The notes beneath the pieces are model-generated. The model made no database searches, was not told where the DNA came from, and worked only from the letters and a program-made list of their open reading frames with translations. Of a stretch of 64,000 nt of DNA, positions 12,799 to 51,188 are shown piece by piece. The DNA comes from Candidatus Aenigmatarchaeota archaeon (GTDB lineage Archaea > Aenigmatarchaeota > Aenigmatarchaeia > QMZP01 > QMZT01): contig CAVSBQ010000002.1 of assembly GCA_963726265.1 (NCBI GenBank), forward strand, positions 352,001 through 416,000. Reading direction: 5' to 3'. Both the position numbers and the translations under genes were made by a program. The first letter of the stretch is position 1, and every line of letters starts with the position of its first letter.

Positions 12799-12936
12799 AC
12801 TCCAGAATAGGCAAAAAGGTTTAAAAAACGTATATTTATTAATATACCTCACACATATTAGGATTATCGCGTTATGGGTTCAGTATAGGTTGATTGACGA
12901 ACGATTGACTAACTGTGGAATGAACGGTGAAATGAA

Positions 12937-20694: not shown

Positions 20695-20792
20695 CGGTTA
20701 TAATTTTTAGCAATAAGATATATAAATCAATATAAATAGCGCCTCCATTATTAACTAAATTAAAAGTCTAAAATATGTTGAGGTGGATTTTT

Positions 20793-35097: not shown

Positions 35098-35151
35098 AAC
35101 TTACGCTTCCAAAATTTCATGCTGAAGACTTTAAAGCAGGAGGTGACAGAG

Positions 35152-36228
35152 ATGGGCTTGAAGGAAAAGTCCAGAAAATCTAAGCTTGGAGGAAAACCAG
35201 CAAGCGTCCACGCATCCGGAGGACTTTTCAGGCCCAGAACAAAACCAGGCCTAGCGGCAGCTCTAGCCCTCGTTTGGGTCGCACTTGCCCTCTCGATAAC
35301 GGTTTCCTATGCTGAAGCGGCAGACCCCGGCCACGCTGCTTCGTCAATCTCGGCAGGAACGTTCGAGTCAGGCGATTACGCATTCCCTAACAACCTCAGC
35401 ATCACCAACAACCTGACAGTAAGCGGCAGTGTCGGCATAGGGATGCCGCCGTCCAGCTATCTGCTGCAGGTGGCCAAAACAGACAATTCAACAAATATCT
35501 CCGGCGTGCTTTATGTCAACGGGACCAGCGGCAGGGTCGGCATAATGTATGCGACACTGACGGCATCATCAGCCTTGTATGTCAACGGCAGCACTTATAC
35601 GAGCGGCACGCTTTCCAGTGGCAGCGACATTTACACCACCGGCACCGGAGATGACTTGTGGCTCGGCAACAGCACGCAGGCAAACTCCAAGCTGCAGCTG
35701 TTCGCGAACGGCGGCATCAACGCCCTTTTCTGGAACTTTACGGTGAACGAGACTACGGGCAACATCGGCATAGGAAAGATAATGCCGAACTACAAGCTTG
35801 AAGTCGAGACGACGGAGAATGCGCTGAACGTTTCAAATACGCTTTTCGTGAACGGAACTTCAGGCAGAGTCGGCATCGGGACGGCGAGTCCGGCACAGAA
35901 ACTGCAGGTTGAAGGTTGGGCAACCATAAGACTAAACACGACAGCCTCCGGTGGTCTGGCGTATGACATAAGTGCGTATCGTTACGGCGTGTCAAATGCC
36001 GGCTTTGAAATAAGGGACATCACTGCCAGCGTCACCAGAATAGCTATAGATGAAAACGGCAAAGTCGGCATCGGAACGGCAGCGCCGAGCAAGTGGCTCG
36101 AAGTGAGCAACTCGACGCAGGGCATAACCTTCGACCCGAATGTGACCTCGCCGACCATAAACACGACCGCCACGAAGGACCTTATCATAACTGCCGGCAG
36201 CGGCAACGTGATAATACAGCTGGGATGA
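35152..36228 (+). CDS. Secreted or anchored fibre-like protein with GxVGIG repeats
   Basis: Hydrophobic leader, DPGHAASSISAGTF head, then five G(S/R/N/K)(V/I)GI repeats, most followed by P..(K/L)LxV. Confidence 0.75.
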   Translation: MGLKEKSRKSKLGGKPASVHASGGLFRPRTKPGLAAALALVWVALALSITVSYAEAADPGHAASSISAGTFESGDYAFPNNLSITNNLTVSGSVGIGMPPSSYLLQVAKTDNSTNISGVLYVNGTSGRVGIMYATLTASSALYVNGSTYTSGTLSSGSDIYTTGTGDDLWLGNSTQANSKLQLFANGGINALFWNFTVNETTGNIGIGKIMPNYKLEVETTENALNVSNTLFVNGTSGRVGIGTASPAQKLQVEGWATIRLNTTASGGLAYDISAYRYGVSNAGFEIRDITASVTRIAIDENGKVGIGTAAPSKWLEVSNSTQGITFDPNVTSPTINTTATKDLIITAGSGNVIIQLG

Positions 36229-36324: not shown

Positions 36325-37893
36325 ATGGGCCTGCTGAAGGCGGAGTCTGTGGCATTCGTGCTGCTGCTCCTTAGCGTATGCATCGCTTCGGCGGCGGGGA
36401 ATTTCAGCTGCAGCATAACCGCAAGCGGCAGCTGCTCCTACACCAAGGTGCTTTACATGAAGAACGACACCGCAGGCTACTGGAACGCGCACGCGGAAAA
36501 CGTTTCTGCGGCGTCGTATCCGTATGCGATATGCTGCGATTCCAATGCGACGCTCGCGCTGAAATGCGGCGAAGGCGTGCTTTTCAATCTCAACACGACC
36601 ACGAACACGCACGTCCAGCGCGGCGATTACGCGGGACCGGGAATAGTTTACGGCATCGATGCGTGCATTGCCACGACGCCCGGCTACTTCAATTGCACAT
36701 ATGTCGACGACGCCTGCCCTGCCAACAGGGAATGCTTCGCCTCTATGACCAGCGACGCTGCTTCGGAGAACAACGACACCAATGCCCATGTCGGGCCGTG
36801 CGACGAATACAGGAGGAAGGTATGCTGCAGGGCCGTGAACGACATAAAGATCATGTATGTCAGCCCCACGCCTGAGGACAGCGCCAGGACGATTAACAAC
36901 AGCGTGACTATTAACGTCACCGTCGACGTGGACTCGGCTTTAACTGCCGACACGTGCATCCTCGAATGGAGTGCCGGCGCGGCCGCTGCGCAGAACGAGA
37001 CCATGGAAATGATCGGTTCGGGCAGCAGCGTGACGTGCAACGCGACCAAAGCGACGGCGGACGCGACTGTTTACACCTTCAGGGTCTACGCGAACGATTC
37101 GGCCAACGCTTTCGGCAGCGGGGCCGCAAGGCAGTTCAGGGAGAACGACGAACCGTCGAAAGTCACGCTTTCCTCGCCGGCGGACGGCTCGCACACCACG
37201 GACCGCACGCCGACTTTCCAATGGGACGCCGCAAGCGACGGCGATTTCGACACGCTCACATATTATATCAATATATCATGCTTCGGCGGCGACGGCTGCT
37301 CGGAGGACAACAGGTTCGTGAACGTGGGCACGGGCACCTCGTATACGCCATCCGAAGAGCTGGAATTCTTCGGCGACGACAACTTTTACTACAACTGGTC
37401 CGTCATGGCATTTGACAACTACGAGAACGGCACGTGGAGCGACCCATGGAACCTGACAATAGACGTGGATGTCTCGATAACCATGATCAACAGCATGGTC
37501 GACTTCGGCGAGAACAGGCTGCTCGGTTATACGGACAACACTACTGACAGCGATCCCTCCCCCTTCTCGCTGAAGAACACGGGCAACTGCATGATAGACG
37601 TCAACATATCGTCCAGCGACCTGCTGTGGGATGCGGTCTCGCAGCCCTCGGACTACTTCAACTATTCCGTGAACTGGTTTACGGGAGAGGAAGGCGCCTT
37701 CAACTGGAGCGGCTCGCAGACCAGCTCGGTGAACATGCCAGTAGTCGCGCAGAACGTGAGCTTCATAAACTATCTTAATTACACGTTCGGCAACAGCTCG
37801 GCTGAAATCGAGCTTTACATCAAGGTCCCGCCCGCGGAGCCGCCCGGGACGAAATCATCGCTTATCATATTCACGGGAGAGTATCACAGGTGA
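36325..37893 (+). CDS. Secreted protein: Cys/His-rich N-domain, Ig/FN3-like middle, C-terminal domain shared with the 43843 protein
   Basis: Signal peptide; NAHAE..YAICC, NTHVQ and NAHVGPC..KVCC motifs; no C-terminal TM. Confidence 0.8.
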   Translation: MGLLKAESVAFVLLLLSVCIASAAGNFSCSITASGSCSYTKVLYMKNDTAGYWNAHAENVSAASYPYAICCDSNATLALKCGEGVLFNLNTTTNTHVQRGDYAGPGIVYGIDACIATTPGYFNCTYVDDACPANRECFASMTSDAASENNDTNAHVGPCDEYRRKVCCRAVNDIKIMYVSPTPEDSARTINNSVTINVTVDVDSALTADTCILEWSAGAAAAQNETMEMIGSGSSVTCNATKATADATVYTFRVYANDSANAFGSGAARQFRENDEPSKVTLSSPADGSHTTDRTPTFQWDAASDGDFDTLTYYINISCFGGDGCSEDNRFVNVGTGTSYTPSEELEFFGDDNFYYNWSVMAFDNYENGTWSDPWNLTIDVDVSITMINSMVDFGENRLLGYTDNTTDSDPSPFSLKNTGNCMIDVNISSSDLLWDAVSQPSDYFNYSVNWFTGEEGAFNWSGSQTSSVNMPVVAQNVSFINYLNYTFGNSSAEIELYIKVPPAEPPGTKSSLIIFTGEYHR

Positions 37894-38384
37894 ATGAAAT
37901 GGACAGGATGAAACTTTCGATAGCAGCGGCGGAGCTGGCGGTAATCGGCCTGCTGACGCTGCTGCTGGTCAACCTCGTAACCATACCGCTTGTCTCACCA
38001 CAGCACAAGCTTTACACCACGGACAGTATGCCTGAACTGGTCTGGGGCGGCATGCAGGGCGACTACGTTGTCCTGCTGGATGACAACCCGAAATTCTCGA
38101 CTCCGCTTACCGCGGAGGTTTCCGGCAACTCATACACGTTTCCGCAGGAGCTCGCTTTCGGTACGTATTACTGGAAGGTCCAGGCGGGCCCGATGTCGAG
38201 CGAGGTGCGAAGGTTCACGCTAGGCTCGAGCGTTGTCCTGTCCAGAGAAGGAGATGAGGTCAGGAACGAAGGCAACACGGAGCTGCTGGTGCATGCGCCC
38301 AGCATAACGGGCGCTTTCATGCTTGGCGTGAATGAAACGGTGGAATTGGGAGCGGAGGAAAATGTCATGGCAGAGCAGGCTTAG
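37890..38384 (+). CDS. Membrane-anchored protein with a single FN3-like domain
   Basis: N-terminal TM, DDNPKFS and GTYYWKV motifs. Its GTG start overlaps the upstream stop (GTGA). Confidence 0.75.
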   Translation: MNEMDRMKLSIAAAELAVIGLLTLLLVNLVTIPLVSPQHKLYTTDSMPELVWGGMQGDYVVLLDDNPKFSTPLTAEVSGNSYTFPQELAFGTYYWKVQAGPMSSEVRRFTLGSSVVLSREGDEVRNEGNTELLVHAPSITGAFMLGVNETVELGAEENVMAEQA

Positions 38385-39591
38385 GTGGCTGGCATGCGTG
38401 CTGGCGCTGGTGGCGGTGTTCAGCTGTGCCGCTGCGAACGCGGCAGCGATAGGCCTCACGCCGGGCAGGACTACCATCGACTTCGAGCCGAACATGGAAA
38501 AAACCGTGACCTTCACGATAATCAACAACGAACACAAGAACTTCAACGCGCTCGTTTACGCCGAAGGCGATCTCAAGGATTACGTCGCCCTCGGCAAGAA
38601 CATCGTCGAGTTCAAGGAAACGGACAACACGAAGGAGTTTTCATACGCCGTAAAGCTGCCTGATAAAATCGACAAGCCCGGCGACCACTGGGCCAAGATA
38701 ATCGTCATGGAAATGCCGCCGGGGACCGAGGCCGAGAAGCTCGAGGGGCAGTTTGTCATAGCCACGACCGCGGTAGTCCACCAGCTTAGGGTCAAGGTTC
38801 CCTACCCGGGCAAATACGCCGACCTTGACATGGTCGTGCAGGAAGCGGAACCAGGCCAGACCGCGACGTTCTTCGTCAAGCTCTACAACCTAGGCACCGA
38901 GGACATCTACAAGGCCTTCGCGACCATTGACATCCTGGGCCCGACCAACGAGAAGATAGCGATGCTAGAGAGCGACGAGATAGCGCTGGAATCGAAGAAG
39001 GGCGGCGAACTTATAATCCCGTGGAAGGCCGACGTCAACCCCGGCACGTATCACGCGGTCGCGACCGTAAACTACGACGGGAAAATCGGGACTGTTGAGA
39101 AGAATTTCGGCATAGGCGCGCTGAGGATAGAGGTCGTCGACGTGCAAGTGAGGAATTTCGTTTTGGGAGGCATAGCGAAGTTCGAGATAAATGTCGAGAA
39201 CAAGTGGAACCAGAAGGTCGACGGCGTATACGCGGAAGTCGTAATGAGCGACCAGAAAGGCGACACTGTGGCGAGTTTCAAGTCCGCGTCCGTCGACGTC
39301 GACGCGCTACAAAGATCGACACTCTACGCCTACTGGGACACGCAGGGCATCGAGAAAGGCGCGTACGAAGCGAAGCTCGTGTTGCACTATGCGGGCAAGA
39401 CGAGCGAGAAGGTGATGAAGACCTACGTCGAGCTCGAAAGCATAGAGACCGACATCGTAGGCTTGACCGCGAAGGTCATAACCTCCAAAGGCGGGGTGGG
39501 GCCGGGAACCGAGATACTCGTGCCGCTCGTCCTGATACTGGTGTTCATAAACGCAGGCTGGTTCTTCTACTTCAGGAGAAGGAAGAAATAG
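38362..39591 (+). CDS. Signal peptide + three Ig-like domains + C-terminal TM protein (paralog A)
   Basis: IGLTPGRTTIDFEPN, PGDH, VPYPGKY, NLG and GTYHAVATVNY motifs; TM followed by RRRKK. GGAGG precedes the ATG at 38362. Confidence 0.82.
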   Translation: MSWQSRLRWLACVLALVAVFSCAAANAAAIGLTPGRTTIDFEPNMEKTVTFTIINNEHKNFNALVYAEGDLKDYVALGKNIVEFKETDNTKEFSYAVKLPDKIDKPGDHWAKIIVMEMPPGTEAEKLEGQFVIATTAVVHQLRVKVPYPGKYADLDMVVQEAEPGQTATFFVKLYNLGTEDIYKAFATIDILGPTNEKIAMLESDEIALESKKGGELIIPWKADVNPGTYHAVATVNYDGKIGTVEKNFGIGALRIEVVDVQVRNFVLGGIAKFEINVENKWNQKVDGVYAEVVMSDQKGDTVASFKSASVDVDALQRSTLYAYWDTQGIEKGAYEAKLVLHYAGKTSEKVMKTYVELESIETDIVGLTAKVITSKGGVGPGTEILVPLVLILVFINAGWFFYFRRRKK

Positions 39592-39624
39592 GTCCAGTAA
39601 AAGGCGTTGCATTAATAATCCGGT

Positions 39625-40065
39625 TCAAACGGTTATTTTTTCCGAGCTTGTCGAAAGCACGGCTTCGCCATAGCTGACCTCGACCGTGAGCGAGTGCTCG
39701 CCCGGCCCGACCGCCGTGTCCAGGCCGAATTCGGCTATCGGCAAACTGTAGGCATACACGCCTCCATAGCCGTAGACTTCGTAGCTTATTGCCAGACTTG
39801 AGCCCTCGACGCGCTCATACGCGCTGCCCGTCTTTTCGATGAAGGCCTTCATGGCCATCGCTGAGCTTCTGCCGTCCAGCCGGACGGTCACGACAGCATC
39901 CTCGGGGATGAAGCCGTCCTTACCTATGGAAACGCTTATGTTTGCCGATAACTCGCTTTCCCCGGGCCTAGTGGCCGTGGCGAAACCCGTTATGTCAGGC
40001 CTGGTAATTAGAATGAGGATTAACACGATGCTCGCTACCGGCAGAATGAAAAATCTCCTGTCCAT
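39625..40065 (-). CDS. Small membrane-anchored protein
   Basis: N-terminal TM then ITGFAT. FIPEDAVVTVRL resembles FYPKDTLLEVAV near the start of the giant protein. Confidence 0.7.
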   Translation of the reverse strand: MDRRFFILPVASIVLILILITRPDITGFATATRPGESELSANISVSIGKDGFIPEDAVVTVRLDGRSSAMAMKAFIEKTGSAYERVEGSSLAISYEVYGYGGVYAYSLPIAEFGLDTAVGPGEHSLTVEVSYGEAVLSTSSEKITV

Positions 40066-40166
40066 CCAGTCTTTTATTGGCGCGAAAATTTAAATATCGG
40101 TTAAAGCGATGCCCGTGCGCGCCGCGTGCCGAGCCGTTTTTATTGGGGCCGCGCCAATTATAAAAT

Positions 40167-43100
40167 ATGCTGGGGTCCGGGAGGCTGTTGGTTCTGTTTT
40201 TCGTGGCAGCTATATTAATCTTAATCGCGGGCTCGCGGAATGCCTCGGCGGCCGAATACACGTGCAATTCCGGTTCCGACTGTTCGTCCAAGATACAGGC
40301 CGCTACCAGCGGGGACACGGTAAGGCTGAACGCTTCGCTGACCTTCGCGACCATCGACTTCAACGGAGCCGACGGCATAACATTTGACTGCGACGGCTTC
40401 AGTGTCGCTGGCGTCGATGTCGGAGAAAGCATCAATGGCATTGGCATATACCTTCACGACGGCTCCAACAACAATACCATACGCGATTGCTTTTTTAACA
40501 CCCTTCAATACGGCCTGTTCATCTCCGGCGAGAACAACACGATAACGAATGCGACAATTAATTATACCATGTCTGGCGTTTTTCTGGCCGGCGACTCGAA
40601 CTACAACAGACTTGTGAACGTGACTCTGGTGGATGAAGACGTTATCATAGACTATGGCTCATCCTATGCGTGCACCGACAGCCTGGTGAACGTGACGGGC
40701 TCCGGCAACAGGCCGATAAGGTATTACAACGCTTCGGTGAACCTCACCGGAGAGGTCCTGTCGAAACTAATCCTGTGCAATGCCAGCTATTCCAACATAA
40801 CCAACATTACCGTCACGGGGGCGGTAACGGGCGGCATTGTCGCATACCAGACGAAATATTCGAATTTCAGCGCGATTAATATTTCGGCTTCATACGGCTA
40901 CAACGGGAACGTTTGGGTTTACTACTCCCACAACAATTCTTTCACAAATCTCGCGCTTGACAACAATTTCATTGGTGGCGGCGGCAGTTTGCATGTTGAA
41001 TATTCGGATGACAACACGTTTGTCAACGTTACGGCGAATTACGAACAAGGCACGGGTGTTAGTGTTTCTTCGTCCCAGAAAAATACTTTCACCGGCATCA
41101 CAGCCAACTACAACACGTATGGCATCTCACTCGATTCTTCCGATAACAACGCGTTTGTCAACATTACGGCGAATTACAATGATGGTGACGGCTTTTCTGT
41201 TAGTTCGTCGCTCAACAACACGTTCGACAGGATAATAGCCAGCAACAACTATGATGGATTTGAAATCTCTGGCTTATCCTCGTTCAACGTATTGAATAAT
41301 TCGCGCATAGAAAACAGCACGGAGTACGGCATCATCCTTTACTCATACGACCCGGACTATGCTCTCTACAACACGTTCCGCAACAACCTGTTCAACAATT
41401 CCGCGAATCTTTATTCAGACAATGATCAGAACCAGAACTACTGGAACACGACGCTGCGGGCGGGCCAGAGGATATACGCGGGCGGCAATTACATAGGCGG
41501 CAACTACTGGGCGTCCCTGGACGGGACGGGCTATTCACAGCTCTGCAAGGACGCGGACGGCGACGGCATCTGCGATTCCGCTTACGCGCCCGCCACGAAC
41601 AACACGGACTACCTGCCGCTTAGTGATCAGTATATGATAAGAGAAATCACCGCATGCAGGCTTCTGAACGAGACCGGATGGACCTACAACCTCACGCAGG
41701 ACATCACGGATTCCGCCAGCACGGCCTGCATGAACGTGACCGCAGACAACGTCACGCTCGATTGCGGAGGCCGCAGGATAGACGGCACCTATACCTTGAA
41801 CACTTACGGCGTCTATATGAAGGACAGGAAGAACGTCACCGTCAGGAACTGCACCATAACGGACTGGTGGTTCGGCGTTTTCATGAACACCAGCCTGCGC
41901 AGCAACATCTCCGCCAGCAACCTGACAGGCGACAACACCGGGCTGCGCATCCTTAACTCCTGGAACAACACCCTGAACGACAACTTCGTGAACAGCATCG
42001 GCACCGGCGTCTACCTTAGCAATTCATCGTTCAATTCCATCAGCCGCAACACGATAAAGAACTCCGATGCCGGCATTTCCTTCTATTTATCGTCCATGAA
42101 CAACACGCTGTCAGGCAATAATCTCGAGTCATTCGCAAACTACGCCCTATACATATACCAGTCGCCTGACAACTTCTTCCGCGACTCGAACATAACGAGC
42201 ACGTCGACGAACATTTACCATTTCGCGTCCGGCAATACCGTCTTCCTTAACGTGAGCCTCGACAGGACCAAAATCACCGTGGACGCGGGCGCAGTTTACA
42301 TCAACTGGTATCTGGACGTGAGGGTCGTCGGCGAAAGCGGCCCGGCGCTGGACCAGGCCAACGTGACCGTGAAAAACAGCGGGAACACGACCCTGTTTTC
42401 CGGGACGACCAACGCGTCTGGCTACATAATCAGGCAGAACGTGACCGAGTTCCACCAGAACTTCACCGGCCAGTTTTACTACAACAACCACACCATAAAC
42501 GCCAGCAAGTTCGCCTACGTCTCAGGCCAGGCGTCCGTAAACGTTACGTCAAACCGGCTGGTCACCATCACGCTAATCGAGAGCGTGCCTTACGTGCAGG
42601 TCAAGACATACACGCTGGGCCTGACCGAGACCGACACCATAAAGCCGGGCAGGATAGTCAGGATACGGGCCATCGTCAACTACATCATGGGCAGGGATTA
42701 TCTGGCGAATGCCACCATCCTGATAAGGGACAACCAAGGCTCGACTGTCGTGGATGGCGCGCTGATGCCCAACGTCTCCGTCATAACGAACGGCTACACC
42801 TATGAATATAATTATACTATTGCCAACGGCTCCGCAGGCGTATGGTCGATAAACGTCACCGCAGCGGATACGCTGGGAAAGAAGGGATACGGCAGCAAGA
42901 AAATCGCCATCCTCCCGATCACGCTCCGGATAAGGCTCGTCCTGAACAGCACGTCCGACAGCATCTACGTGCCCGGGGAGGTCGAGACGCCCTTCTCCGG
43001 CCTCACCACGTCGGACTACGCCAGCCCGGACCACCAGTATATTGCCTCGTATTCCGGCGGCCCCTCAGGCAGCCTGGAGGCGCTGGTGTTCTCGCAGCTC

Positions 43101-43439
43101 AATCCCATATCCGTTTTCACGGAGAAAAACGCGGACACCTACGCCATCGGGACCAGGCAGAGGTTCTCCGGCTCCATGGTCCTGCTGGTGTTTTCCAAAG
43201 GCGACTGGAAGGCGGTGAACAATCGAATAGGCTCGGTCGAGAGCGGCGAGTTCTTTGCGTCCTCCGAGCCCAGCTTCGGGTTCGGCCTAGGAAAGGCCTA
43301 CCCACTCAAGGTCGTGCTCTCCTACAGCAACTTGAACATCACCAGAGATCTCGCGCTCTGGAAGGGCTACAACAGGCTCGCCGTCGAGAACGAGGGAGCG
43401 CAGGGTGGCAAGGTCAGCATCAGCGTCACAAGGGGCTGA
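40167..43439 (+). CDS. Secreted right-handed beta-helix (NosD/CASH-like) surface protein
   Basis: Signal peptide, repeated GxxxxxSxNNTFxNxTANYN units, GGNYW and DGDGICD..DYLPL motifs, two beta-helix blocks. Confidence 0.85.
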   Translation: MLGSGRLLVLFFVAAILILIAGSRNASAAEYTCNSGSDCSSKIQAATSGDTVRLNASLTFATIDFNGADGITFDCDGFSVAGVDVGESINGIGIYLHDGSNNNTIRDCFFNTLQYGLFISGENNTITNATINYTMSGVFLAGDSNYNRLVNVTLVDEDVIIDYGSSYACTDSLVNVTGSGNRPIRYYNASVNLTGEVLSKLILCNASYSNITNITVTGAVTGGIVAYQTKYSNFSAINISASYGYNGNVWVYYSHNNSFTNLALDNNFIGGGGSLHVEYSDDNTFVNVTANYEQGTGVSVSSSQKNTFTGITANYNTYGISLDSSDNNAFVNITANYNDGDGFSVSSSLNNTFDRIIASNNYDGFEISGLSSFNVLNNSRIENSTEYGIILYSYDPDYALYNTFRNNLFNNSANLYSDNDQNQNYWNTTLRAGQRIYAGGNYIGGNYWASLDGTGYSQLCKDADGDGICDSAYAPATNNTDYLPLSDQYMIREITACRLLNETGWTYNLTQDITDSASTACMNVTADNVTLDCGGRRIDGTYTLNTYGVYMKDRKNVTVRNCTITDWWFGVFMNTSLRSNISASNLTGDNTGLRILNSWNNTLNDNFVNSIGTGVYLSNSSFNSISRNTIKNSDAGISFYLSSMNNTLSGNNLESFANYALYIYQSPDNFFRDSNITSTSTNIYHFASGNTVFLNVSLDRTKITVDAGAVYINWYLDVRVVGESGPALDQANVTVKNSGNTTLFSGTTNASGYIIRQNVTEFHQNFTGQFYYNNHTINASKFAYVSGQASVNVTSNRLVTITLIESVPYVQVKTYTLGLTETDTIKPGRIVRIRAIVNYIMGRDYLANATILIRDNQGSTVVDGALMPNVSVITNGYTYEYNYTIANGSAGVWSINVTAADTLGKKGYGSKKIAILPITLRIRLVLNSTSDSIYVPGEVETPFSGLTTSDYASPDHQYIASYSGGPSGSLEALVFSQLNPISVFTEKNADTYAIGTRQRFSGSMVLLVFSKGDWKAVNNRIGSVESGEFFASSEPSFGFGLGKAYPLKVVLSYSNLNITRDLALWKGYNRLAVENEGAQGGKVSISVTRG

Positions 43440-43568
43440 CGGTGGTGATGTTTAGGATGATGGGCGCGGCAAAAGGCAAAATTACATCAAAAAAGTTCAA
43501 TTTCGGTTCAAGTTCAATATAGATTTAAATAAGTTGAGGAGAAATATAATTTATAAGGGGTGGGTGAT

Positions 43569-43787
43569 ATGGCAAAATCCAACAACATGCTTTTAGTTCT
43601 GGCAATAGCGCTTCTCATAGTCTCGCTGTTCGGAACCGTTGCAATACTCAACAGCGTGGGCATGGCGAACGTGCCGGTAACAAAGCCATCAACCATACAG
43701 CAGGGGCAGGTAAAGCTGGAGATAGTGCCCGATGCCGGCGCGGACGCGGCTACCGGGTATGTGACTCTTAACATACTGCCTGAATAA
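43569..43787 (+). CDS. Small membrane protein with SNN leader and two GxVxLxI strands
   Basis: MAKSNNMLLVLAIALLIVSL; QGQVKLEI and TGYVTLNI. GGTGA precedes the ATG. Confidence 0.7.
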   Translation: MAKSNNMLLVLAIALLIVSLFGTVAILNSVGMANVPVTKPSTIQQGQVKLEIVPDAGADAATGYVTLNILPE

Positions 43788-43842
43788 GCAGCAGACGATT
43801 AATGAAAGTTCAGAGGTTATATTCAAATTTAAAGGGGGTAAC

Positions 43843-44519
43843 ATGACACAAGTGTCTAATAACTTGATAGCAGGTTTGCTTGTAGTGGCGATAGTGATAT
43901 CAGGCTTCGGCCTGCTGACAGTCGCCAACATGGGACGACAGGTAGCGATAACAGGCGGCGCGACTACCGGCGTCGGGGCGGCGAACGTCTCGATTACCGG
44001 AGCAGTGTCCATAGATCTGATTGCAGGAAGGACAGCGATAGACTTCGATGCAGGAACGCTGGACGGCGTCACCGAGGACAATAGCCACGACGACCGTCAA
44101 CTACGGCACTTTCGACGACGGCTCGGAGGGCAACGGCACGGACCAGACAGGATGCTCCAACACGGAAGCAACGTGTGCATATCCGCTGGTAGTCAGGAAC
44201 ATAGGCAACGTAAACGTGTCGCTTAACATAACCGCGAGCAAGACTGCGGCCAGCCTTCATCGGAGGCGCAAGCGGCCAATTGCAGGAGTTCCTGGGCAAG
44301 GAAAACGAATCTGCAACGTGCGGCAAAGACTGGACAGTCGGCGGTGGCTTCGGAGAAGGAACCTACACAGCGCTTACCACATCGGAAACGGTTGTTTGCT
44401 CCAGCATGGACTTCATCCCTGCGGCCAACGAGATAAGGATTCACCTCAGGCTCACCATACCAGCCGATGCAGTCGGAACGAAAGCCGAGACCATAACATT
44501 GGGCGCCATAACCGCGTAA
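43843..44519 (+). CDS. Pilin-like single-domain protein (~224 aa after removing two extra bases)
   Basis: Joins ORFs 43843, 44048 and 44280 through +1 shifts near 44073 and 44254. Leader MTQVSNNLIAGLLVVAIVIS, then AITGGATTG. Confidence 0.7.
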
Positions 44520-44535
44520 GCAAACGGTGTTTCAA

Positions 44536-45706
44536 ATGAAAAAAGCAGCTTTGGCAGCCCTTTTCTTATTTTTTAATTTATGTTTTCTCGTTTCTCCTGC
44601 TGCAGCCATATCCATCGCGCCAGCCAAGATAACGATGGACTTCGTCCCGGGCTACGAGGCGGAGTTCGATGGCTTCATAACGAACACACAGGACGTCGAG
44701 GTGGCATTCGACGTCTACACGGACGGCGAGCTCATGGGCTACATGACGCTGCTCACGCCGGGCATCATAACGCTCAGCCCGGGCCAGACGGCGAACTACA
44801 AGTTCAAGATAAAGCTGCCCTCCGCTTTCGAAATACCCGGCCCGCACACGGGCATCATCTGGGCGTCGCAGCACGTGGAGGAGCCGACTGGGGAGGGCAT
44901 TGCCATAAGGCTGAAGGCCGGAACGAAGGTGGTAGTAAACGTCCCGTATCCGGGCAAATACGTTGAAATGAAGCTGGACATAAAGAATGCAAAGGTCAAC
45001 GACACCGTGCTCTTTGAAATAACGGCAACGAACCTGGGGAAAGGAGAACATAACCAGCGCCAAAGGCGAGATAAAGCTGATGGATTCCGTGAACAGGACG
45101 CTCGTCATCTTGCAGACCGCGGCGAAGCCGATAATAAGCACGCAGAGCGAAACGCTGCAGGCGACGTGGTTTTCAGACGCCGAACCAGGCCTGTATCAGG
45201 CCGAGGCATCGGTTTTCTACGACGGCGAAACCGCAAGCAGCAGGACCACGTTCAACCTCGGCGCGCCGCTGGTGAAAATCGTGAACATGTCAGCCGAGCC
45301 TATCGTCAACGGAACCATCGGCAAGATATACACGCAGATACAGAGCTACTGGGGCCAGGAAATAGAGGACGTCTACGTCGAGATTTTCATCAGGGACGAG
45401 ACAGGCAAACAGGTCAGCCAGGACAAGAGCAGCAGCATAAAGGTCAAGCCGTTCGACAAGGTCACCCTTACGAACTACTGGGACACCGGCCAGGGCTTCG
45501 AACCCGGCGACTACACGGGCCTGGCCATCCTCCATTACCTCGACAAGAACGACACCGCGGAAACTGGCCTGATGCTGGCGGCGAAGCCGGGCATGTTCGC
45601 GGGCTACGAAATCGTGATTATAATAATTATAGCGGCATTCGCTGCAGCAGGCGTGCTTTTGCTCAGAAGAAGGGAGGGGAAATTCACCCAGAAAAAGCTC
45701 ATGTAA
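44536..45706 (+). CDS. Signal peptide + three Ig-like domains + C-terminal TM protein (paralog B), one +1 frameshift near 45040
   Basis: ISIAPAKITMDFVPG, PGPH, VPYPGKY and NYWDT match paralog A. Joins ORFs 44527 and 45080. Confidence 0.78.
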
Positions 45707-45742
45707 GCAATTTAACTTTTCTCAGCCAATTTCTAATCAACT

Positions 45743-48223
45743 ATGAAAGAGTTATCCAATAACGTGCTCGTCATACTGATATCAGTATTCGTAATAATTA
45801 CCCTGCTGGAGTTTGCGGCCTACCAGATAAAATACGGTGAGATAACGCTAAAAGCGACTGCAGTCGGCTTCGTTGGCATGTGCATCGACAACAACCCGCT
45901 CATCATACCCATCGCCTCGCAGACCGCCTACATAGGCACGCCCTTCGCATACGACGTTAACACGACGGTGGCGAACGACCTCAACGTGACGTTCTATGAC
46001 GACACTCCCCTTTTCACCATAAACTACCAGACGGGCATGATAGCCTTCACGCCCCAGGAAGGCGACGAGAACGACTACTACATAAACATATCAGTGATTT
46101 CCTCGTGCGGAAGGCTCAGCGACGTCAAGAGCATGAGACTCTCCGTGAAGTTCGAGAACAGGGCGCCAATCCTCGACCCTATCCCTGACCAGGCCATGAA
46201 CCAGAATGACCTCTTCACATACGACGTCAACGCGACTGACGCCGACAACGACACGCTGTTCTTCGGCGACAACACGACGATGTTCCAGATAAATTCCAAC
46301 AACGGCCTGATATACTTCGTGCCCCAGCAGGCCGACGTGGGCAACCAGTCCGTCCTCATATGGGTCATGGACGGCAGGGGAGGCATCGACTGGCAGATAG
46401 TGAACTTCGAGATAACGGACGTCAACGACGCGCCGGTGCTCGCCACCATAGGCGCGCAGACGGCGATAATAAACGAGACCTATGTTTATGACGTGAACGC
46501 AACCGACGCCGATGTCAAGCCGGAATGGAACAACCTCAGCTTTTACGACGACGCGGCGTTCTTCAACATAAATCCGTCAACGGGCCTGATACAGTTCTTC
46601 GTCAACGGCTCCTACAACGGGACGTATTCGCTGAACATCACGGTGAGCGACGGCTACCTTTCCGACGAGGAGACAATAAGCTTCTCCGTGATAGCGGTGA
46701 ACCACGCCCCCAACATAACGTCCTGGTATCCAGAGAACGCCACGCTTGAGATAAGCGAGGGCGAAAGCAGCTACTTCAACATAACCAAGTTCGACCTTGA
46801 CGGGACCATACCTTCGACGGCATGGTATCTGGACGGCGTCGTGCTCGCCGGCCAGACCGCGGACGAATATACGTATTACGCGGGCTACACTTCATCCGGG
46901 ACGCACAACCTGACCGTCGTGATAACCGACGGCGAGCTGGATGATGCGCAGGCATGGACAATTAACGTGAGGGACGTACCGCAGATAATTTCGGGAGCGG
47001 CCGGGCCAAGCCAGATCATGCCGCCCGCATGCACGGAGAACTGGAGATGCACGGAATGGGCCGTATGCCCGGTCTACGAAATCCAGACCAGGTCGTGCAG
47101 GGACCTCAGCAGCTGCGGGACCATAAGCTTCAAGCCGGACGAGAGGAGGAAATGCTTCTACACGCCGCAGCCCTCGTGCAGCGACGACGTCATCAACTGC
47201 CACGACGGCGGCTGCGAGATATGGATAGACTGCGGAGGACCATGTCCTCCGTGCGCGACCTGCAGCGACAAGCTCAAGAACTGCCACATGATGTCGAAAC
47301 TGAACACGCTGTGCGAGGAGGGCGTCGACTGCGGAGGGCCGTGCCCGACCTGTCCTGAAGGGCCGCAGCCCGCCGTATGCGGCAATGCCATCTGCGAGCA
47401 GGGCGAGCTGCTGTCCTGCACCCAGGACTGCGGCCTGTTCTTCGGCCAGTTCATAATAGTCGTCATAGCCTTCGGTGGCGCTTCGATATTCCTTTACAGA
47501 TTCTCCGCGCTCGCCGTCCTTTTCTACAGGAAGAAAATAAGGCCGCTGCCATACACGAACATCGAACTCCTCGGAGCGGCGGCGCTCAGGCAGCTGCATC
47601 TCATCCAGCTCGAGATGGGCAGGAAGACGACGAGGGCCATAGTCTCGGAATTATCCTCGGTCATCAGGGACTTCTTCGCGAAGGCGTTCGAGGTCCGCAG
47701 GAAATTCACCTACATAGAGCTGGCCGAGGTCGCGAGGAAGAGGAAACTTGACAAGCCGCTCGTGAAGAGGATAACAGACTTCTCCATAAAGATGACGGAG
47801 CTTGAATACAAATACGCTGAGCCGTCGCTTGCCGAGCTCGCCGCGGCCATAAAGGCTGCGATAGCCATCGTCGAGAGGCTGAGCGGCGTGCGCCTCCACG
47901 AGGCGCTCGGCAAGAAGGCGGAGGAGGAAATACATGCGAAGGAGCCGCAAGAGAAGCCGGTCCAACTGCCCCAGGGTCCGCAGGCAAAGGGAGAAGGCGA
48001 ATATAAAATGACTCAGTCGGACGAGGAGAGCGTAAGGCGTTTGCAGGTGCTTATAGACGAAGGTGAGAAGGCAATCACGAGCCACGCAACGGCGGAAGCT
48101 GAAAAGGCATACGCAAGGATACGGGAGACTTACGACAGGCTCCGCCCCGAGGTAAAAATGAAGCTATACGCCGAAACCATCCGCATAATAAAACTGTATA
48201 ACGAGATAATGAAAAGCGAATAG
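45743..48223 (+). CDS. Surface protein: cadherin-like repeats, Cys-rich stalk, TM, and ~250-aa cytoplasmic helical domain
   Basis: YDVNATDAD/DVNDAP repeats; CTENWRCTEW..QTRSCRDL; DCGGPCPxC twice; internal TM followed by RKK. Confidence 0.85.
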   Translation: MKELSNNVLVILISVFVIITLLEFAAYQIKYGEITLKATAVGFVGMCIDNNPLIIPIASQTAYIGTPFAYDVNTTVANDLNVTFYDDTPLFTINYQTGMIAFTPQEGDENDYYINISVISSCGRLSDVKSMRLSVKFENRAPILDPIPDQAMNQNDLFTYDVNATDADNDTLFFGDNTTMFQINSNNGLIYFVPQQADVGNQSVLIWVMDGRGGIDWQIVNFEITDVNDAPVLATIGAQTAIINETYVYDVNATDADVKPEWNNLSFYDDAAFFNINPSTGLIQFFVNGSYNGTYSLNITVSDGYLSDEETISFSVIAVNHAPNITSWYPENATLEISEGESSYFNITKFDLDGTIPSTAWYLDGVVLAGQTADEYTYYAGYTSSGTHNLTVVITDGELDDAQAWTINVRDVPQIISGAAGPSQIMPPACTENWRCTEWAVCPVYEIQTRSCRDLSSCGTISFKPDERRKCFYTPQPSCSDDVINCHDGGCEIWIDCGGPCPPCATCSDKLKNCHMMSKLNTLCEEGVDCGGPCPTCPEGPQPAVCGNAICEQGELLSCTQDCGLFFGQFIIVVIAFGGASIFLYRFSALAVLFYRKKIRPLPYTNIELLGAAALRQLHLIQLEMGRKTTRAIVSELSSVIRDFFAKAFEVRRKFTYIELAEVARKRKLDKPLVKRITDFSIKMTELEYKYAEPSLAELAAAIKAAIAIVERLSGVRLHEALGKKAEEEIHAKEPQEKPVQLPQGPQAKGEGEYKMTQSDEESVRRLQVLIDEGEKAITSHATAEAEKAYARIRETYDRLRPEVKMKLYAETIRIIKLYNEIMKSE

Positions 48224-48299
48224 GGGCGCAATGCGCAATACAAAAAAGCGATTTCTCCATGACTGGTTTGGTTTTTACAGGCAGCCTAAATTTATAAAT

Positions 48300-49238
48300 T
48301 TATGGCAGCGTCCTGTATTTCGTGTTCACTAGGCCCCATTCGGCGAACAGGAGGCCTAGCGCCGCAACGAGGCATATGAGCGCGAGGTTGACGGGAAGCT
48401 TTTGCGTGCCGGAAAGCGCTATGCCCTCGTATATCACGGAAAGCTCGCTTTCGTTCCTTGCCTCGTAATAAACTCCCCCGGTTTCGTTCGCTATCCTGGC
48501 CAGCGTCGACGGGTCGAGCTTCGAGACGAATGAGAGGTTCATCTCCGGGAAGCCTCCGCCGGCTTCGGTGCCCATGCCTATCGCGTATATGGCGACGTGA
48601 TTGTCGTTGGCGTATGCTATCGCCTCGTCGATGCTCGGTCCGACGTTGTTCTGCCCGTCCGTCAGGAGGATGATGGCCCTGGGCTTTTCGCTGCCAACTA
48701 GGAGGTTGACGGACGAGATTATGGCGGAGCCTATCGCCGTCCCGCCAGCGAGCTCGACGGATATGTTTTTTATTACGTCCTCCACCCGCGCCTTTTCAGG
48801 GGTCAGCTCCTGCTTTATGAAGCCCACGCCGGCGAAGGATACGACGCCTATCTCAGTCAGCTCCGGGGCGGCGTCGACGAAGGTGAGGGCCGATTTCTTT
48901 GCAGCCTCCAGCCTGCTGGGCTCGAAATCCTTTGCCAGCATGCTGCCGGAGGCATCGAGCGCGAGGACGAAGTTCGTATCGCCTGTTCTGCCTTCATACC
49001 ATAATGTCGCGCCGGAAACCGCGAGTATGAGTAGCAGCAGGGTCACGAGCCGCATGGCAAGAAGGACGTAGTTTTTCGAGAAAATCCTCTCCCCGGTCAC
49101 GTATTCTATGGCCGGGAAGTTGGCGAATTTTAACGCCTTTTTCCTGGTGAACCTAAGGCTCACGAAATGCGCGAGGATCATGAGCGGTATCGCCACCAGG
49201 AACCAGAGATAAAGCGGGTTCGCGAAAGTCATCTCCAT
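48300..49238 (-). CDS. BatA-like membrane vWA domain protein
   Basis: MTFANPLYLWFLVAIPL double-TM N-terminus; MIDAS motif DASGSM, GGTAIG and LLTDG; C-terminal TM. Confidence 0.9.
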   Translation of the reverse strand: MEMTFANPLYLWFLVAIPLMILAHFVSLRFTRKKALKFANFPAIEYVTGERIFSKNYVLLAMRLVTLLLLILAVSGATLWYEGRTGDTNFVLALDASGSMLAKDFEPSRLEAAKKSALTFVDAAPELTEIGVVSFAGVGFIKQELTPEKARVEDVIKNISVELAGGTAIGSAIISSVNLLVGSEKPRAIILLTDGQNNVGPSIDEAIAYANDNHVAIYAIGMGTEAGGGFPEMNLSFVSKLDPSTLARIANETGGVYYEARNESELSVIYEGIALSGTQKLPVNLALICLVAALGLLFAEWGLVNTKYRTLP

Positions 49239-50128
49239 GCCCATTTCCTCCTTACCATAAAGAATTCGGTGAGGGGCTTGATAAACGGTTCTGCAGTCGA
49301 TGTTTTCAACAGGTCGAGGTTCCCCTTCATGAATGCGCTGTTTATCGCGGCCTCCTCGTCCGCCACGAACTTTTTGTATTGCTCGCCCATTTTCCTCGGG
49401 CTCGCGAGCAGCATGCTGTCCGAATAAGGGTCCTGCAGGACGATCTGGCCCACGTCTTCCTCGGGCATGACTTCGTCCCTCGGGTCCCTGACCATTACGC
49501 CGATGATGTCGAATTTCATGGAGGCCATCCTGAGGATCTTGTGCCACTCTGGCTTGAAGCCTATGAAATCGGATATGATTACCATGAGGCCGCGCTCCTT
49601 TGACGTCTTCATGACGAATTTCACCGCGTTCTCGAGGTCATAGCCGCCGCCGTAGAAGGCCGGGTTGACCAGCGAGTTGAGCATGATGTAGAAGTGCTTC
49701 TTGCCGCCTGAAGGCGGGATCATCTTGACAATCTTGTCGTTGAACATGACGAGACCGGCTTTGTCATTCGCCTCCAGGATGAAATAGGCGAACGTGGCCG
49801 CGAGCTCCGCGGCGTATTCGAGCTTCAGCTTCTCGGTCGAGCCGAAAATCATGGAAGACGACGTGTCGAGAAGAATGTAAACGTTGAGATTCCTCTCCTC
49901 CCTGAAGATCTTTATCAGCGTGTCGTTCGCACGTATGCTGGCCTTCCAGTCAATCCTGCTGGCGTCGTCGCCGTCCGTGTAGACCCTGTAATCCTCGAAT
50001 TCGAGACCCTTGCCCTTGTAGACGCTCCTGTATTTGCTCGTGACCTTCGTGTTGATGAGCATCTTTATGATAAGCTCGAGCTCCTTCATCAGGGCAACGA
50101 CGTCAACCCTCAGCCTCTTGACGGCCAT
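49229..50128 (-). CDS. DUF58 family protein
   Basis: GKGLEFEDYRVY..GDDASRIDWKAS, FREER, DTSSSM and ISDF motifs. Confidence 0.93.
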   Translation of the reverse strand: MAVKRLRVDVVALMKELELIIKMLINTKVTSKYRSVYKGKGLEFEDYRVYTDGDDASRIDWKASIRANDTLIKIFREERNLNVYILLDTSSSMIFGSTEKLKLEYAAELAATFAYFILEANDKAGLVMFNDKIVKMIPPSGGKKHFYIMLNSLVNPAFYGGGYDLENAVKFVMKTSKERGLMVIISDFIGFKPEWHKILRMASMKFDIIGVMVRDPRDEVMPEEDVGQIVLQDPYSDSMLLASPRKMGEQYKKFVADEEAAINSAFMKGNLDLLKTSTAEPFIKPLTEFFMVRRKWAWR

Positions 50129-50195
50129 AAATTATATTTGTCGCTTCGGCTTAATTAAAAACAGTTTTTCCTTTTCCGTTTTCTGTATAGAAAGC

Positions 50196-51188
50196 TTACG
50201 GGATCGAGACCTTTTCCAGAATCTCCTTCACGATGTCGTCCGTCTTTATCCCCTCGGCCATGCCCTCGTAATTCAGGATTATCCTGTGGCGCATGACCGG
50301 CATGGCGATTTCCTTGACGAAATCAGGTATGACGAAATTCTTGCCGTGGAGAAGCGCGTTGGCCTTGGAAACTATGAAGAGCCCTATCGAAGCCCTCGGA
50401 GAGGAGCCGATTTCTATGTATTTGCCCAGCTTCAGGCCGTATTTTTTCGGCCTCCTGGTCGCGTCGACCAGGCTGACGCAATACTGCTCGACCTTCTGGC
50501 TCATATAAATCTTCTTGGTGTCCTCCTGCATCCTGATTATGTCCTGCGGGCTGATGGCAGCCCTTATCGCGAAGTCGTCGAACTTGTAAAGGTTGATGTT
50601 CTTCCTGAGTATCTTAATCTCCTCTTCGCTCGTCGGGTAGTCCATGTAAAGCTTGAGGAGGAACCTGTCTATCTGGGCCTCGGGCAGCGAATACGTGCCT
50701 GCGGATTCTATGGGGTTCTGGGTCGCCATGACGAAGAACGGGCTCGGCAGCAAGAACGTCTCCTTGCCTATCGTCACCTGCCTCTCGCCCATGGCCTCGA
50801 GGAGGGCGGACTGCGTTTTCGGCGGCGCTCTGTTTATTTCGTCCGCGAGGATGAAATTCGTGAACACCGGGCCCTTGACGACGTAGAAGCCCTTGTCCTT
50901 GTTGTATGCGGTTATGCCCGTGATGTCTGTGGGCAGCAAATCGACCGTGAACTGTATCCTCTTGAAGTCGCAGCCTGTCGCTTTCGCCACCGCGCGGATG
51001 AGAAGGGTCTTGGCTATGCCGGGAACGCCTTCCACGAGCGTGTGGCCGTTGCACAGGAGGCCGAGAAAAAGGCCGCTGACGACGTCATGCTGGCCGACTA
51101 TGAGTTTCGCTATTTCCTTTTTCACGAGGTCCAGCTTTGCCCTGTGGGCTTCTATTGTCCTTTCGTCCACACCCTCGGCTTCGGCCAT
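50196..51188 (-). CDS. moxR: MoxR-family AAA+ ATPase
   Basis: EGVPGIAKT, RIQFTVDLLPTDITG, DEINRAPPKTQSALLEAM, ATQNPIE and LPEAQIDRF motifs. Confidence 0.95.
   Translation of the reverse strand: MAEAEGVDERTIEAHRAKLDLVKKEIAKLIVGQHDVVSGLFLGLLCNGHTLVEGVPGIAKTLLIRAVAKATGCDFKRIQFTVDLLPTDITGITAYNKDKGFYVVKGPVFTNFILADEINRAPPKTQSALLEAMGERQVTIGKETFLLPSPFFVMATQNPIESAGTYSLPEAQIDRFLLKLYMDYPTSEEEIKILRKNINLYKFDDFAIRAAISPQDIIRMQEDTKKIYMSQKVEQYCVSLVDATRRPKKYGLKLGKYIEIGSSPRASIGLFIVSKANALLHGKNFVIPDFVKEIAMPVMRHRIILNYEGMAEGIKTDDIVKEILEKVSIP

Follow-up and report, generated by a model that had tools for sequence, protein, structure and literature searches.

A candidate usher-less, chaperone-guided donor-strand fibre encoded by a surface-protein gene cluster of an Aenigmatarchaeota archaeon

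A run of surface-protein genes in the genome of a Candidatus Aenigmatarchaeota archaeon (GenBank assembly GCA_963726265.1) raises the question of whether its adhesin-like and immunoglobulin (Ig)-like products belong to one fibre-assembly system and, if so, to which kind. The run spans 35-56 kb of the stretch analyzed here, namely 64,000 nucleotides of contig CAVSBQ010000002.1 (positions 352,001 to 416,000 of the forward strand; henceforth the window), which lies on contig C2 of a host genome of 1.13 Mb in 4 contigs; by Pfam, the remainder of the window consists of typical archaeal housekeeping genes. Among database matches, the nearest relatives that carry a name are Candidatus Aenigmarchaeota MAGs, in line with the DPANN affiliation given in the earlier sequence-only reading. 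A sequence-only reading of the window had proposed an undescribed filament or adhesin assembly system, distinct from type IV pili and coupled to a MoxR-DUF58-vWA module. Here, we argue that the cluster encodes an archaeal usher-less, chaperone-guided donor-strand fibre, nearest in kind to the Elr/WxL and Pam pili of bacteria, a reading to which we assign a probability of about 0.6. Genes are named below by the first of their two coordinates in Table 1.

The small pilin-like protein encoded by 43843 shares a domain with the C-terminal ~145 aa of the adhesin encoded by 36325, as had been suspected from the sequence alone. The direct pairwise similarity of the two within the window is weak, with a tblastn search of the 43843 region, using the 36325 C-terminus as query, giving partly out-of-register alignments (best E 9e-5, in a tiny search space), and a profile was therefore needed to demonstrate the shared domain. 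Profile A1, built from 39 small-protein homologs and searched against the six-frame open reading frames (ORFs) of the host genome (10,738 segments), aligns its positions 46-216 with residues 376-518 of the adhesin (E 2.8e-13); a second A1 search, of genomes of the phylum, recovered the same C-terminal domain with E 3.8e-14. Only five ORF segments of the host genome match the profile, these being the three 43843 fragments (E 3e-25, 9e-24, and 7e-23), the 36325 C-terminus, and a 72-aa ORF (43569-43787) that matches by its N-terminal helix only (profile positions 4-38, E 1.8e-4). A direct tblastn search with the 36325 C-terminus recovers the small proteins of more distant genomes at E values of 1e-7 to 1e-13.

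Each of these two genes is followed by a gene for a protein in which a signal peptide precedes three Ig domains and a transmembrane (TM) helix closes the chain, hereafter the Ig-TM proteins. Those encoded at 38332-39591 (A) and 44527-45709 (B) are paralogs (E 8e-26 and 1e-14, 29-32% identity), and both carry the motif VPYPGKY, which is almost invariant across the Ig-TM family. The AlphaFold2 (AF2) model of the 38332 protein (pLDDT 88.8) begins with a signal helix, continues through three Ig domains, and has its TM helix at residues 393-418, and a hydrophobic C-terminal tail is present in all 10 of the 10 orthologs inspected. In structural comparisons, residues 38-262 of this model align best with the WxLIP of Enterococcus faecium (9i1y_A, Z 13.5, 209 aligned residues, root-mean-square deviation 10.0; 9i25_C, Z 12.0) and with the chaperones of chaperone-usher systems (Caf1M 3dsn_A, Z 11.3; SfaE, 11.2; FimC, 11.1). 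Single-domain alignments of the same protein to Ig domains of glycosidases score equally high; hence, it is the two-domain coverage that counts. At the level of sequence, PF11797 (WxLIP_HBD) weakly matches 24 of the 42 Ig-TM family members at E<=0.1 (best 1.2e-6) and PF06030 matches two of the 42, and PapD_N is not among the families listed (25/48) for this family. The comparison with WxL/DUF916 clusters drawn in the sequence-only reading is thus apt, with both the PF11797 matches and the placement of WxLIP among the best two-domain structural matches pointing that way. The family has 364 homologs at E<=0.001, of which the named ones are all of the DPANN type.

The association of the two families is tight across the phylum. 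Among 151 of its genomes, the pilin domain is found in 21, the Ig-TM protein in 25, and both in 20, the exceptions being mostly contig-end matches or weak matches in giant ORFs. At the level of individual genes, 39 of the 46 pilin-domain matches lie at most 2 kb from an Ig-TM match, across several families of the phylum, and 35 of the 41 Ig-TM matches have a pilin domain within 2 kb; for these counts, six helix-only rows (E above 1e-6) and three weak Ig-TM rows in giant or unrelated ORFs (G081, G079, G093) were dropped, and the three 43843 fragments of the host genome (G000) were merged into one row. The full gene order, from the adhesin to the second cadherin-like protein (51319), is kept in 7 of the 12 loci fetched. 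All seven come from the window's own taxonomic order and are therefore not independent; the other five keep a core of the small protein(s), the Ig-TM gene, and, mostly, a mini ORF. Orthologs of 36325, of 37890 (E 4e-33 to 2e-62, between the adhesin and Ig-TM genes), and of 40167 each occur in seven loci, those of 51319 lie beside MoxR in seven loci, and those of 39625 occur in four same-family loci (E 1e-25 to 1e-51).

The small-protein family is large, with 3011 clusters (50% identity) at E<=1e-3 and 2124 at E<=1e-10. The domain also closes otherwise unrelated ORFs of 529 to 9724 aa, each directly before an Ig-TM gene, and in genome G132 it ends a beta-helix protein (E 3e-29). The 9724-aa frame belongs to a same-family genome and represents a giant adhesin, whose terminal pilin-like domain (G072:C7:102975-103319, locus L041) lies 11 bp from the Ig-TM gene. 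The small gene itself is present in tandem copies in G073, G031, G054, G072, G080, and G095. The C-terminus of the window's own beta-helix protein (40167) was considered as a further pilin domain and rejected, there being no A1 match at E<=10, the result on which the rejection rests; hhalign gave a probability of 0.7% with 7 of 8 rows valid, the window's own row being the invalid one. As to named relatives, the WxL domain PF13731 is not among the 13 Pfam families listed for the 39 small-protein members at E<=1, and WxL is the nearest named cluster to the small-protein family in the Atlas, with a score of 0.79 that makes it a lead under the Atlas's own line of 0.9.

The physical counterpart of this genomic pairing was examined by modeling a complex of intact orthologs from one genome of the same family (G026), namely Ig-TM B (residues 22-350) and the small subunit (36-226), each with its own alignment. 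The predicted complex scores ipSAE 0.74, 0.74, and 0.79, the best of three controls being 0.00; the runs agree in at least 73% of their contacts, and the partner pLDDT is at least 71. By the tool's calibration, 116 of 157 solved complexes attain its mark, as do 2 of 215 mismatches. The contacts of lowest error join residues 121-130 of the helper to residues 216-223 of the subunit, the indices rising on both sides, that is, in parallel and in register. On the helper, the segment involved is the amphipathic strand that immediately precedes VPYPGKY, and on the subunit it is the last strand of the domain; helper 121-130 also contacts subunit 60-61, and the first helper strand (22-34) contacts subunit 45-65. 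Such parallel pairing of a helper strand with the last strand of the subunit is the geometry of chaperone-usher systems and of ElrE-ElrD as described in the preprint (10.64898/2026.10.17.759780).

The fold of the small subunit is compatible with that of a donor-strand pilin, though the fold alone does not prove it. The AF2 model of the G026 ortholog (pLDDT 83.6) has a helix at residues 5-27, a disordered stretch at 28-40, a lower-confidence strand at 41-50, and a beta-sandwich from 54 onward. Its top Foldseek matches are to the cannula protein CanA (9h8b, E 2.5e-3, TMt 0.62; 7uii), and realignment of the Foldseek candidates with VIA-align gives Z scores of 7.2 for FimG, 6.9 for CanA, 6.8 for CsuA/B, 6.3 for PapA, 5.7 for TasA, 5.4 for AbpA, 5.2 for Saci_0406, and 5.0 for Tafi, with TLP-1 also within the range of 5.0-7.2. 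Taken with the predicted complex and its controls and with the co-occurrence and adjacency across genomes, the models support three of the roles proposed in the sequence-only reading: 43843 as a subunit, 36325 as an adhesin with a C-terminal subunit domain, and 38332/44527 as membrane-bound chaperones.

A further set of features resides in the N-terminal region of the small subunit and some of its neighbors. The motif M-x(1-5)-(S/T/G)-N-(N/R/K)-(L/I/V/M/T)-(L/I/V/M), leading into a hydrophobic helix, occurs in only three ORFs among the 10,738 segments of the genome, and these are the mini protein 43569, the small subunit 43843, and 45743; moreover, the N-terminus of the 45743 ortholog in G072 matches positions 1-67 of the pilin profile (E 3.6e-4). 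Among 75 diverse small-subunit members, the most conserved feature is a TG dipeptide after the helix (G invariant, T in at least 90%), followed by an amphipathic strand; no residue of the folded domain is as strictly conserved as this TG (75-member alignment A4; 43843-43960 of the window). We know of no named processing site that fits it. In the window's small subunit, the strand after the TG reads AANVSITGAVSI. Comparable arrangements recur in the cluster: the 39625 family has a helix, then 'DI(T/S)G', then a strand, with the motif kept in five of five sequences; the N-terminus of 51319 has a helix, 'TTG', and a strand; the 45743 family has 'G-x-V-x-x-C' after the helix; and the mini proteins are nothing more than the helix and two 'G-x-V-x-V-x-V'-type strands. 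ORFs resembling the mini protein lie just upstream of the small-protein gene in 10 of the 11 other loci inspected, L035 being the one with none. The 45743 protein continues from its S-N-N-motif helix and 'G-x-V-x-x-C' strand into Ig repeats, a Cys-rich region, a second TM helix, and a ~235-aa cytoplasmic helical tail. A genome-wide pattern search for a TM helix followed by [IVL][TS]G was also tried; it returned 61 ORFs, mostly noise, and is unusable as a list of substrates.

From these features we infer that the cluster proteins bearing the TG or a comparable strand are strand donors of differing kinds, serving as shaft, adaptor, or membrane anchors. The mini protein 43569 is possibly a membrane-anchored strand donor acting as a terminator or anchor, the 39625 protein possibly a minor subunit, the 37890 protein possibly an adaptor or anchor, and the 51319 protein possibly a second stalk or anchor. 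The idea that 45743 forms the base of the structure, which came from the sequence-only reading, is no more than suggestive; the 45743 protein has the subunit-type helix motif, found in only three ORFs of the genome.

Together, these elements permit us to propose how a fibre might be assembled. Once the subunits are exported, the 38332 protein would serve the adhesin and the 44527 protein the small subunit, each Ig-TM protein inserting the last strand of its first Ig domain, just before the VPYPGKY hinge, into the open groove that the pilin-like domain leaves between its first and last strands. The inserted strand would keep that domain folded at the membrane until the N-terminal amphipathic strand of a subunit (AANVSITGAVSI, following the TG) replaces the chaperone strand in the preceding subunit. 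The resulting chain would carry the 36325 adhesin at its distal end and the 43843 protein as its shaft, and would terminate on membrane-anchored strand donors, that is, the 72-aa mini protein, 45743, and perhaps 51319.

Several observations weigh against this proposal. The adhesin retains the segment equivalent to the candidate donor strand (profile positions from 46), and in the predicted complex that strand (45-56) contacts the chaperone rather than hanging free; therefore, the segment may belong to the fold as its A strand instead of acting as a donor. The N-terminal helix of the small subunit has no positively charged n-region, and if it is not cleaved, it would keep every subunit in the membrane, cleavage at the TG being something that we infer. 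The predicted interface covers the chaperone-subunit pair and no subunit-subunit pair; it was obtained with G026 proteins that are ~53-58% identical to the window genes, themselves frame-broken, and, as the tool cautions, a pair that resembles solved complexes may score well from memorized examples, as may apply here. The small subunit has no Pfam match, with none of the 39 A1 members significant (best E 0.021), and neither family's profile has a sequence match in PDB (0 matches; 2 chance-level matches). The window Ig-TM protein reaches 14.9 bits against PF11797, for which the cut-off is 28.9. Finally, the small subunit has middling fold matches, all with a Z score below 8: the best in an unbiased search is 6.4, and the top 50 rows of that search mix ~17 PapD/MSP-type Ig domains with ~20 donor-strand pilins by our own sorting.

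The same data can be read without a polymer. The Ig-TM proteins might be permanent anchors, each holding one pilin-domain protein by strand complementation and thereby fastening TM-less adhesins to a wall-less cell. We regard this as unlikely, though it agrees with an interface predicted for chaperone and subunit only, with the two dedicated paralogs kept beside their own clients across seven loci, with an adhesin that has no anchor of its own, and with a small subunit that has its own N-terminal helix; it is also the former model for WxLIP (PMC10599100). A small subunit merely sitting on its chaperone would, however, have no evident purpose, and the tandem small-gene copies in six genomes and the conserved amphipathic strand after an invariant TG also speak against such an arrangement. 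The strand-only mini proteins suit exchange better than a fixed 1:1 complex, and the bacterial counterpart has been reinterpreted from a platform to a pilus (10.64898/2026.10.17.759780). A still less probable view, which we hold to be very unlikely, is that these are unrelated Ig-fold surface proteins, for instance accessories of an S-layer or an envelope complex that binds glycans, and only happen to be syntenic, with the predicted interface an artefact of exposed beta edges. Ig-like folds are indeed common, the subunit Z scores are middling, CARDB matches 26 of the 42 Ig-TM family members, and many other surface proteins (subtilase, LamG, cadherin-like) are encoded nearby. Yet all three complex controls score 0.00 against 0.74, the adjacency holds for 39 of 46 matches over several families of the phylum, and the same domain stands at the C-terminus of unrelated giant proteins, always before an Ig-TM gene.

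There are two further alternatives. Two core genes, the small subunit and its chaperone, are frameshifted in this assembly, which also weighs against a functional fibre here: 43843 has two +1 insertions, at about 44070-44072 and at 44254, and 44527 has one, an extra G in the GGGG run at 45036-45039. There is an appreciable, if minor, chance that the system is decaying, with the shaft subunit and chaperone true pseudogenes and no fibre made in this organism; three +1 frameshifts over two core genes, two of them outside long homopolymers, are what such decay might leave. Against it, a short-read contig from run X1, of a related strain (98% identical over 981 bases, depth 4.1), has one base fewer at 44070 and at 44254 and thus lacks exactly the two 43843 insertions; the three 43843 fragments are otherwise undamaged and share 94-97% identity with P0141, an intact ortholog from a metagenome; and the third shift, which no contig of the sequencing runs spans, falls in the GGGG run. 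The contigs of runs X2-X4 represent small parts only. A giant LamG-repeat surface protein upstream of the cluster (28295-33895) is likewise split, into overlapping frames at 28295-31333, 31257-31634, and 31478-33895, which suggests frameshifts like those of the cluster and, in a 4-contig assembly, perhaps assembly-wide indel errors. Assembly error or strain variation is accordingly the more likely source of the frameshifts than loss of the system. The other alternative is a type IV-like fibre, in which the helix shared by the small subunit, mini protein, and 45743 would be the assembly element and the machinery would be encoded elsewhere. A common N-terminal helix motif, such as these three proteins have, is indeed found in major and minor type IV pilins, and the genome has five T2SSE-type ATPases over cut-off and one A24 peptidase, all more than 30 kb from the window. 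We nonetheless find this barely plausible: there is no class III leader and no K/R-G/A cleavage site before the helix, the motif beginning at residue 1-5; the most conserved site, the TG, sits after the helix and not before it; no ATPase, platform, or peptidase is encoded in the window; and the class III-like N-termini that the genome does encode ('KAQSAMEYL', 2 ORFs) are quite unlike those of the cluster subunits. The latter two small ORFs (G000:C2:831348-831551 and C2:239025-239486, 'KAQSAMEYLM...') are probably true type IV pilins. Within the window, Pfam likewise gives no match to families of type IV pilus ATPases, prepilin peptidases, or signal peptidases, in agreement with the sequence-only reading, which had recognised no prepilin peptidase or secretion ATPase; no S24/S26 peptidase is present there either, with one weak match far off in the genome at C2:596562.

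The 45743 gene ends the run, as the sequence-only reading had it, and converges on genes for a BatA-type vWA protein, a DUF58 protein, and a MoxR ATPase that face it from the opposite strand and form, in a row, a typical Bat-type module by Pfam. This triad is adjacent in 7 of the 12 loci; in G072, which belongs to the same family, the 45743 ortholog has no such triad next to it. The vWA protein has a K/R-rich loop between its first and second TM helices and four NxS/T sequons in the vWA domain, because of which this domain, with its MIDAS, probably faces outward. An outward MIDAS domain is a poor fit to a purely cytoplasmic remodeller, the role that the sequence-only reading had given to MoxR/vWA, and synteny in 7 of the 12 loci is all that speaks for that assignment.

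How does the proposed fibre compare with known systems? Its closest counterpart is the Elr/WxL pilus of Enterococcus faecalis and other Bacillota, in which ElrE is the DUF916/DUF3324 WxLIP chaperone, ElrD and ElrC are pilins, ElrA is the tip adhesin, and ElrB the anchor (10.64898/2026.10.17.759780; PMC10599100), and which is reported there to be confined to Bacillota (10.64898/2026.10.17.759780). Both systems are usher-less and have a multi-Ig chaperone with a C-terminal TM helix, a chaperone strand that is predicted to run parallel with the subunit's C-terminal strand, and a small pilin beside adhesins of variable payload, beta-helices among them, that end in a pilin domain. In both, the chaperone gene lies beside the pilin gene, here well within the 10 kb on one replicon by which Elr loci are recognized, and the weak PF11797/PF06030 matches and the Z of 13.5 to a WxLIP structure add to the likeness. 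The differences are equally clear. The present system is archaeal; by Pfam, its subunit has no WxL domain; its helper has three Ig domains versus two, and there are two dedicated paralogous helpers; its subunits begin with a conserved hydrophobic helix and an invariant TG rather than an ordinary signal peptide; and in some of its lineages MoxR-DUF58-vWA lies next door. Elr is anchored by LPxTG and sortase, whereas the candidate anchors here are TM proteins; no LPxTG or sortase motif was noticed in the cluster proteins, in which no dedicated LPxTG/sortase search was made. Archaea have no peptidoglycan.

The Pam pili of Candidate Phyla Radiation (CPR) bacteria offer a second parallel, with PamA/B/E as pilins, PamT as the tip, PamC and PamD as chaperones, and PamR as the anchor, and they are reported to be exclusive to CPR (PMC13278184). 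Like the present system, they belong to ultrasmall episymbionts, use a pair of PapD-like chaperones that each carry a TM helix at the C-terminus, and have no trans-envelope machine; further, their proposed terminator or anchor is a TM-anchored Ig-repeat protein with an N-terminal strand, comparable to 45743, 51319, and the mini protein (PMC13278184). Their pilins differ in having two domains with a linker donor strand and ordinary Sec signals, a comparison made by description and not by sequence (PMC13278184). The classical chaperone-usher pili (chaperones FimC/PapD/Caf1M; pilins FimA/PapA/CsuA/B; FimH-type two-domain adhesins) resemble the archaeal system in the two-domain Ig chaperone (Z ~11), the pilin-like sandwich (FimG, Z 7.2), the adhesin with a C-terminal pilin domain, and the predicted clamping of the subunit's first and last strands by the first strand and the last domain-1 strand of the chaperone. 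In contrast, there is here no usher and no outer membrane, and the chaperone is membrane-anchored with a third domain; neither PapD_N nor an usher family is among the Pfam matches of the window proteins.

Within the archaea, the donor-strand fibres that the cited papers name, namely cannulae (CanA), bundling pili (AbpA), threads (Saci_0406), and Tat-fimbriae (TafA/C/E/F), are described as chaperone-free (PMC11821415). They have in common with the present system an Ig or jelly-roll subunit with an N-terminal strand, CanA being the top Foldseek match to the small subunit, and, in the case of the Tat-fimbriae, a TM-anchored terminator together with a tip adhesin in which a subunit-like domain is present (PMC11821415). 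These chaperone-free fibres lack the Ig-TM helper that defines the present cluster, and the Tat-fimbria and TasA clusters include a dedicated signal peptidase (TafD, SipW), of which there is none in this window (PMC11821415). We found no archaeal chaperone-type donor-strand system among the papers listed by full-text searches. Chaperone-assisted strand exchange has been demonstrated in bacteria only, in chaperone-usher pili and, in 2026 preprints, in Elr/WxL and Pam pili (10.64898/2026.10.17.759780; PMC13278184). The word 'undescribed' in the sequence-only reading thus holds for archaea in the literature searched and does not hold in the broader sense, given these close bacterial counterparts. 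One might go further and see in the cluster a DPANN host-attachment fibre that represents a third, independently organized form of donor-strand exchange guided by chaperones, with a helix signal bearing a TG processing site, a base formed by the mini protein and the cadherin-like two-TM protein, and coupling to MoxR-DUF58 via the outward vWA/MIDAS domain for assembly or tension; this we consider quite unlikely.

The coordinates of the cluster features are collected in Table 1. The intergenic distances differ between the two chaperone-client pairs, with 439 bp from the adhesin to Ig-TM A and about 7 bp from the small subunit to Ig-TM B; the 439-bp stretch 3' of 36325 is occupied by the conserved gene for the 164-aa TM protein (37890-38384). 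The small conserved genes 37890, 39625 (minus strand), and 43569 went unrecorded in the earlier reading. Searches of Pfam and NCBIfam gave nothing significant for the small subunit or for the 35119, 37890, and 39625 proteins.

Table 1. Features of the candidate fibre cluster and the adjoining module, in window coordinates
Feature	Position	Strand	Remarks
Adhesin, 522 aa	36325..37893	+	Sec signal, Cys-rich N-terminal part, Ig-like domains, C-terminal pilin-like domain
Pilin-like domain of 36325 protein	aa 376-518, nt ~37450-37878	+	A1 profile
164-aa protein	37890..38384	+	N-terminal TM helix, FN3-like domain, C-terminal '(I/V)TGA(F/M)(V/M)LGV' strand
Ig-TM protein A, 419 aa	38332..39591	+	Signal peptide, three Ig domains, C-terminal TM helix
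146-aa protein	39625..40065	-	TM helix, 'DITG' motif, amphipathic strand (SANISVSI), small domain
Secreted right-handed beta-helix protein, 1090 aa	40167..43439	+	NosD 6e-38, Beta_helix 1.5e-24 (Pfam)
Mini protein, 72 aa	43569..43787	+	Pilin-type N-terminal helix motif, then two short 'G-x-V-x-V/L-x-V/I' strands
Small pilin-like subunit, ~224 aa read through	43843..44520	+	Three frames; N-terminal helix, invariant TG, amphipathic strand, Ig-like sandwich
Ig-TM protein B, ~395 aa read through	44527..45709	+	Two frames; paralog of 38332
Ig/cadherin-like membrane protein, 826 aa	45743..48223	+	Big_9 5e-7, He_PIG 7e-6 (Pfam)
BatA-type vWA membrane protein	48300..49244	-	BatA 1.5e-8, VWA 5e-16 (Pfam); start probably near 49244
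DUF58 protein	49229..50128	-	PF01882 6.7e-51
MoxR AAA+ ATPase	50196..51188	-	AAA_3 9.8e-60, AAA_lid_2 8.6e-18
Large cadherin-like surface protein, 1406 aa	51319..55539	+	Cadherin 1.4e-10; N-terminal helix, 'TTG', strand, C-terminal TM

The surroundings of the cluster hold several other genes of interest. Directly upstream of it lie overlapping nucleotidyltransferase and HEPN genes (34020-35097), a minimal NTase/HEPN pair of toxin-antitoxin-like aspect, and the gene for a secreted 369-aa protein with repeated 'VGIG'/'NGTSGRVGIG' motifs and no family match (35119-36228), an ortholog fragment of which stands beside the adhesin gene in L038 only. Farther upstream, within a long surface-protein island, a secreted subtilase of 1782 aa with three MopE-type metal-binding motifs (23122-28470) is encoded just before the LamG genes. 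Outside this island, three PQQ/BamB-like beta-propeller proteins are encoded in tandem on the minus strand (8837-12852), and a gene at 20775-21974 encodes an S-adenosylmethionine synthetase. Its matches (E 1e-41 to 1e-68) are to the S-AdoMet_synt N, M, and C families, which we take to be the bacterial/eukaryotic type and not the usual archaeal MAT.

If the donor-strand reading is true, chaperone-guided strand exchange would, with a family of ~3000 clusters that has no Pfam entry, extend to the third domain of life, and the question is one that can be tested using two small soluble proteins. It would also give a function to a large block of 'hypothetical' surface genes of the DPANN archaea. For the biology of these ultrasmall episymbionts, it would provide concrete candidates for host attachment in the form of giant adhesins that share one tail.

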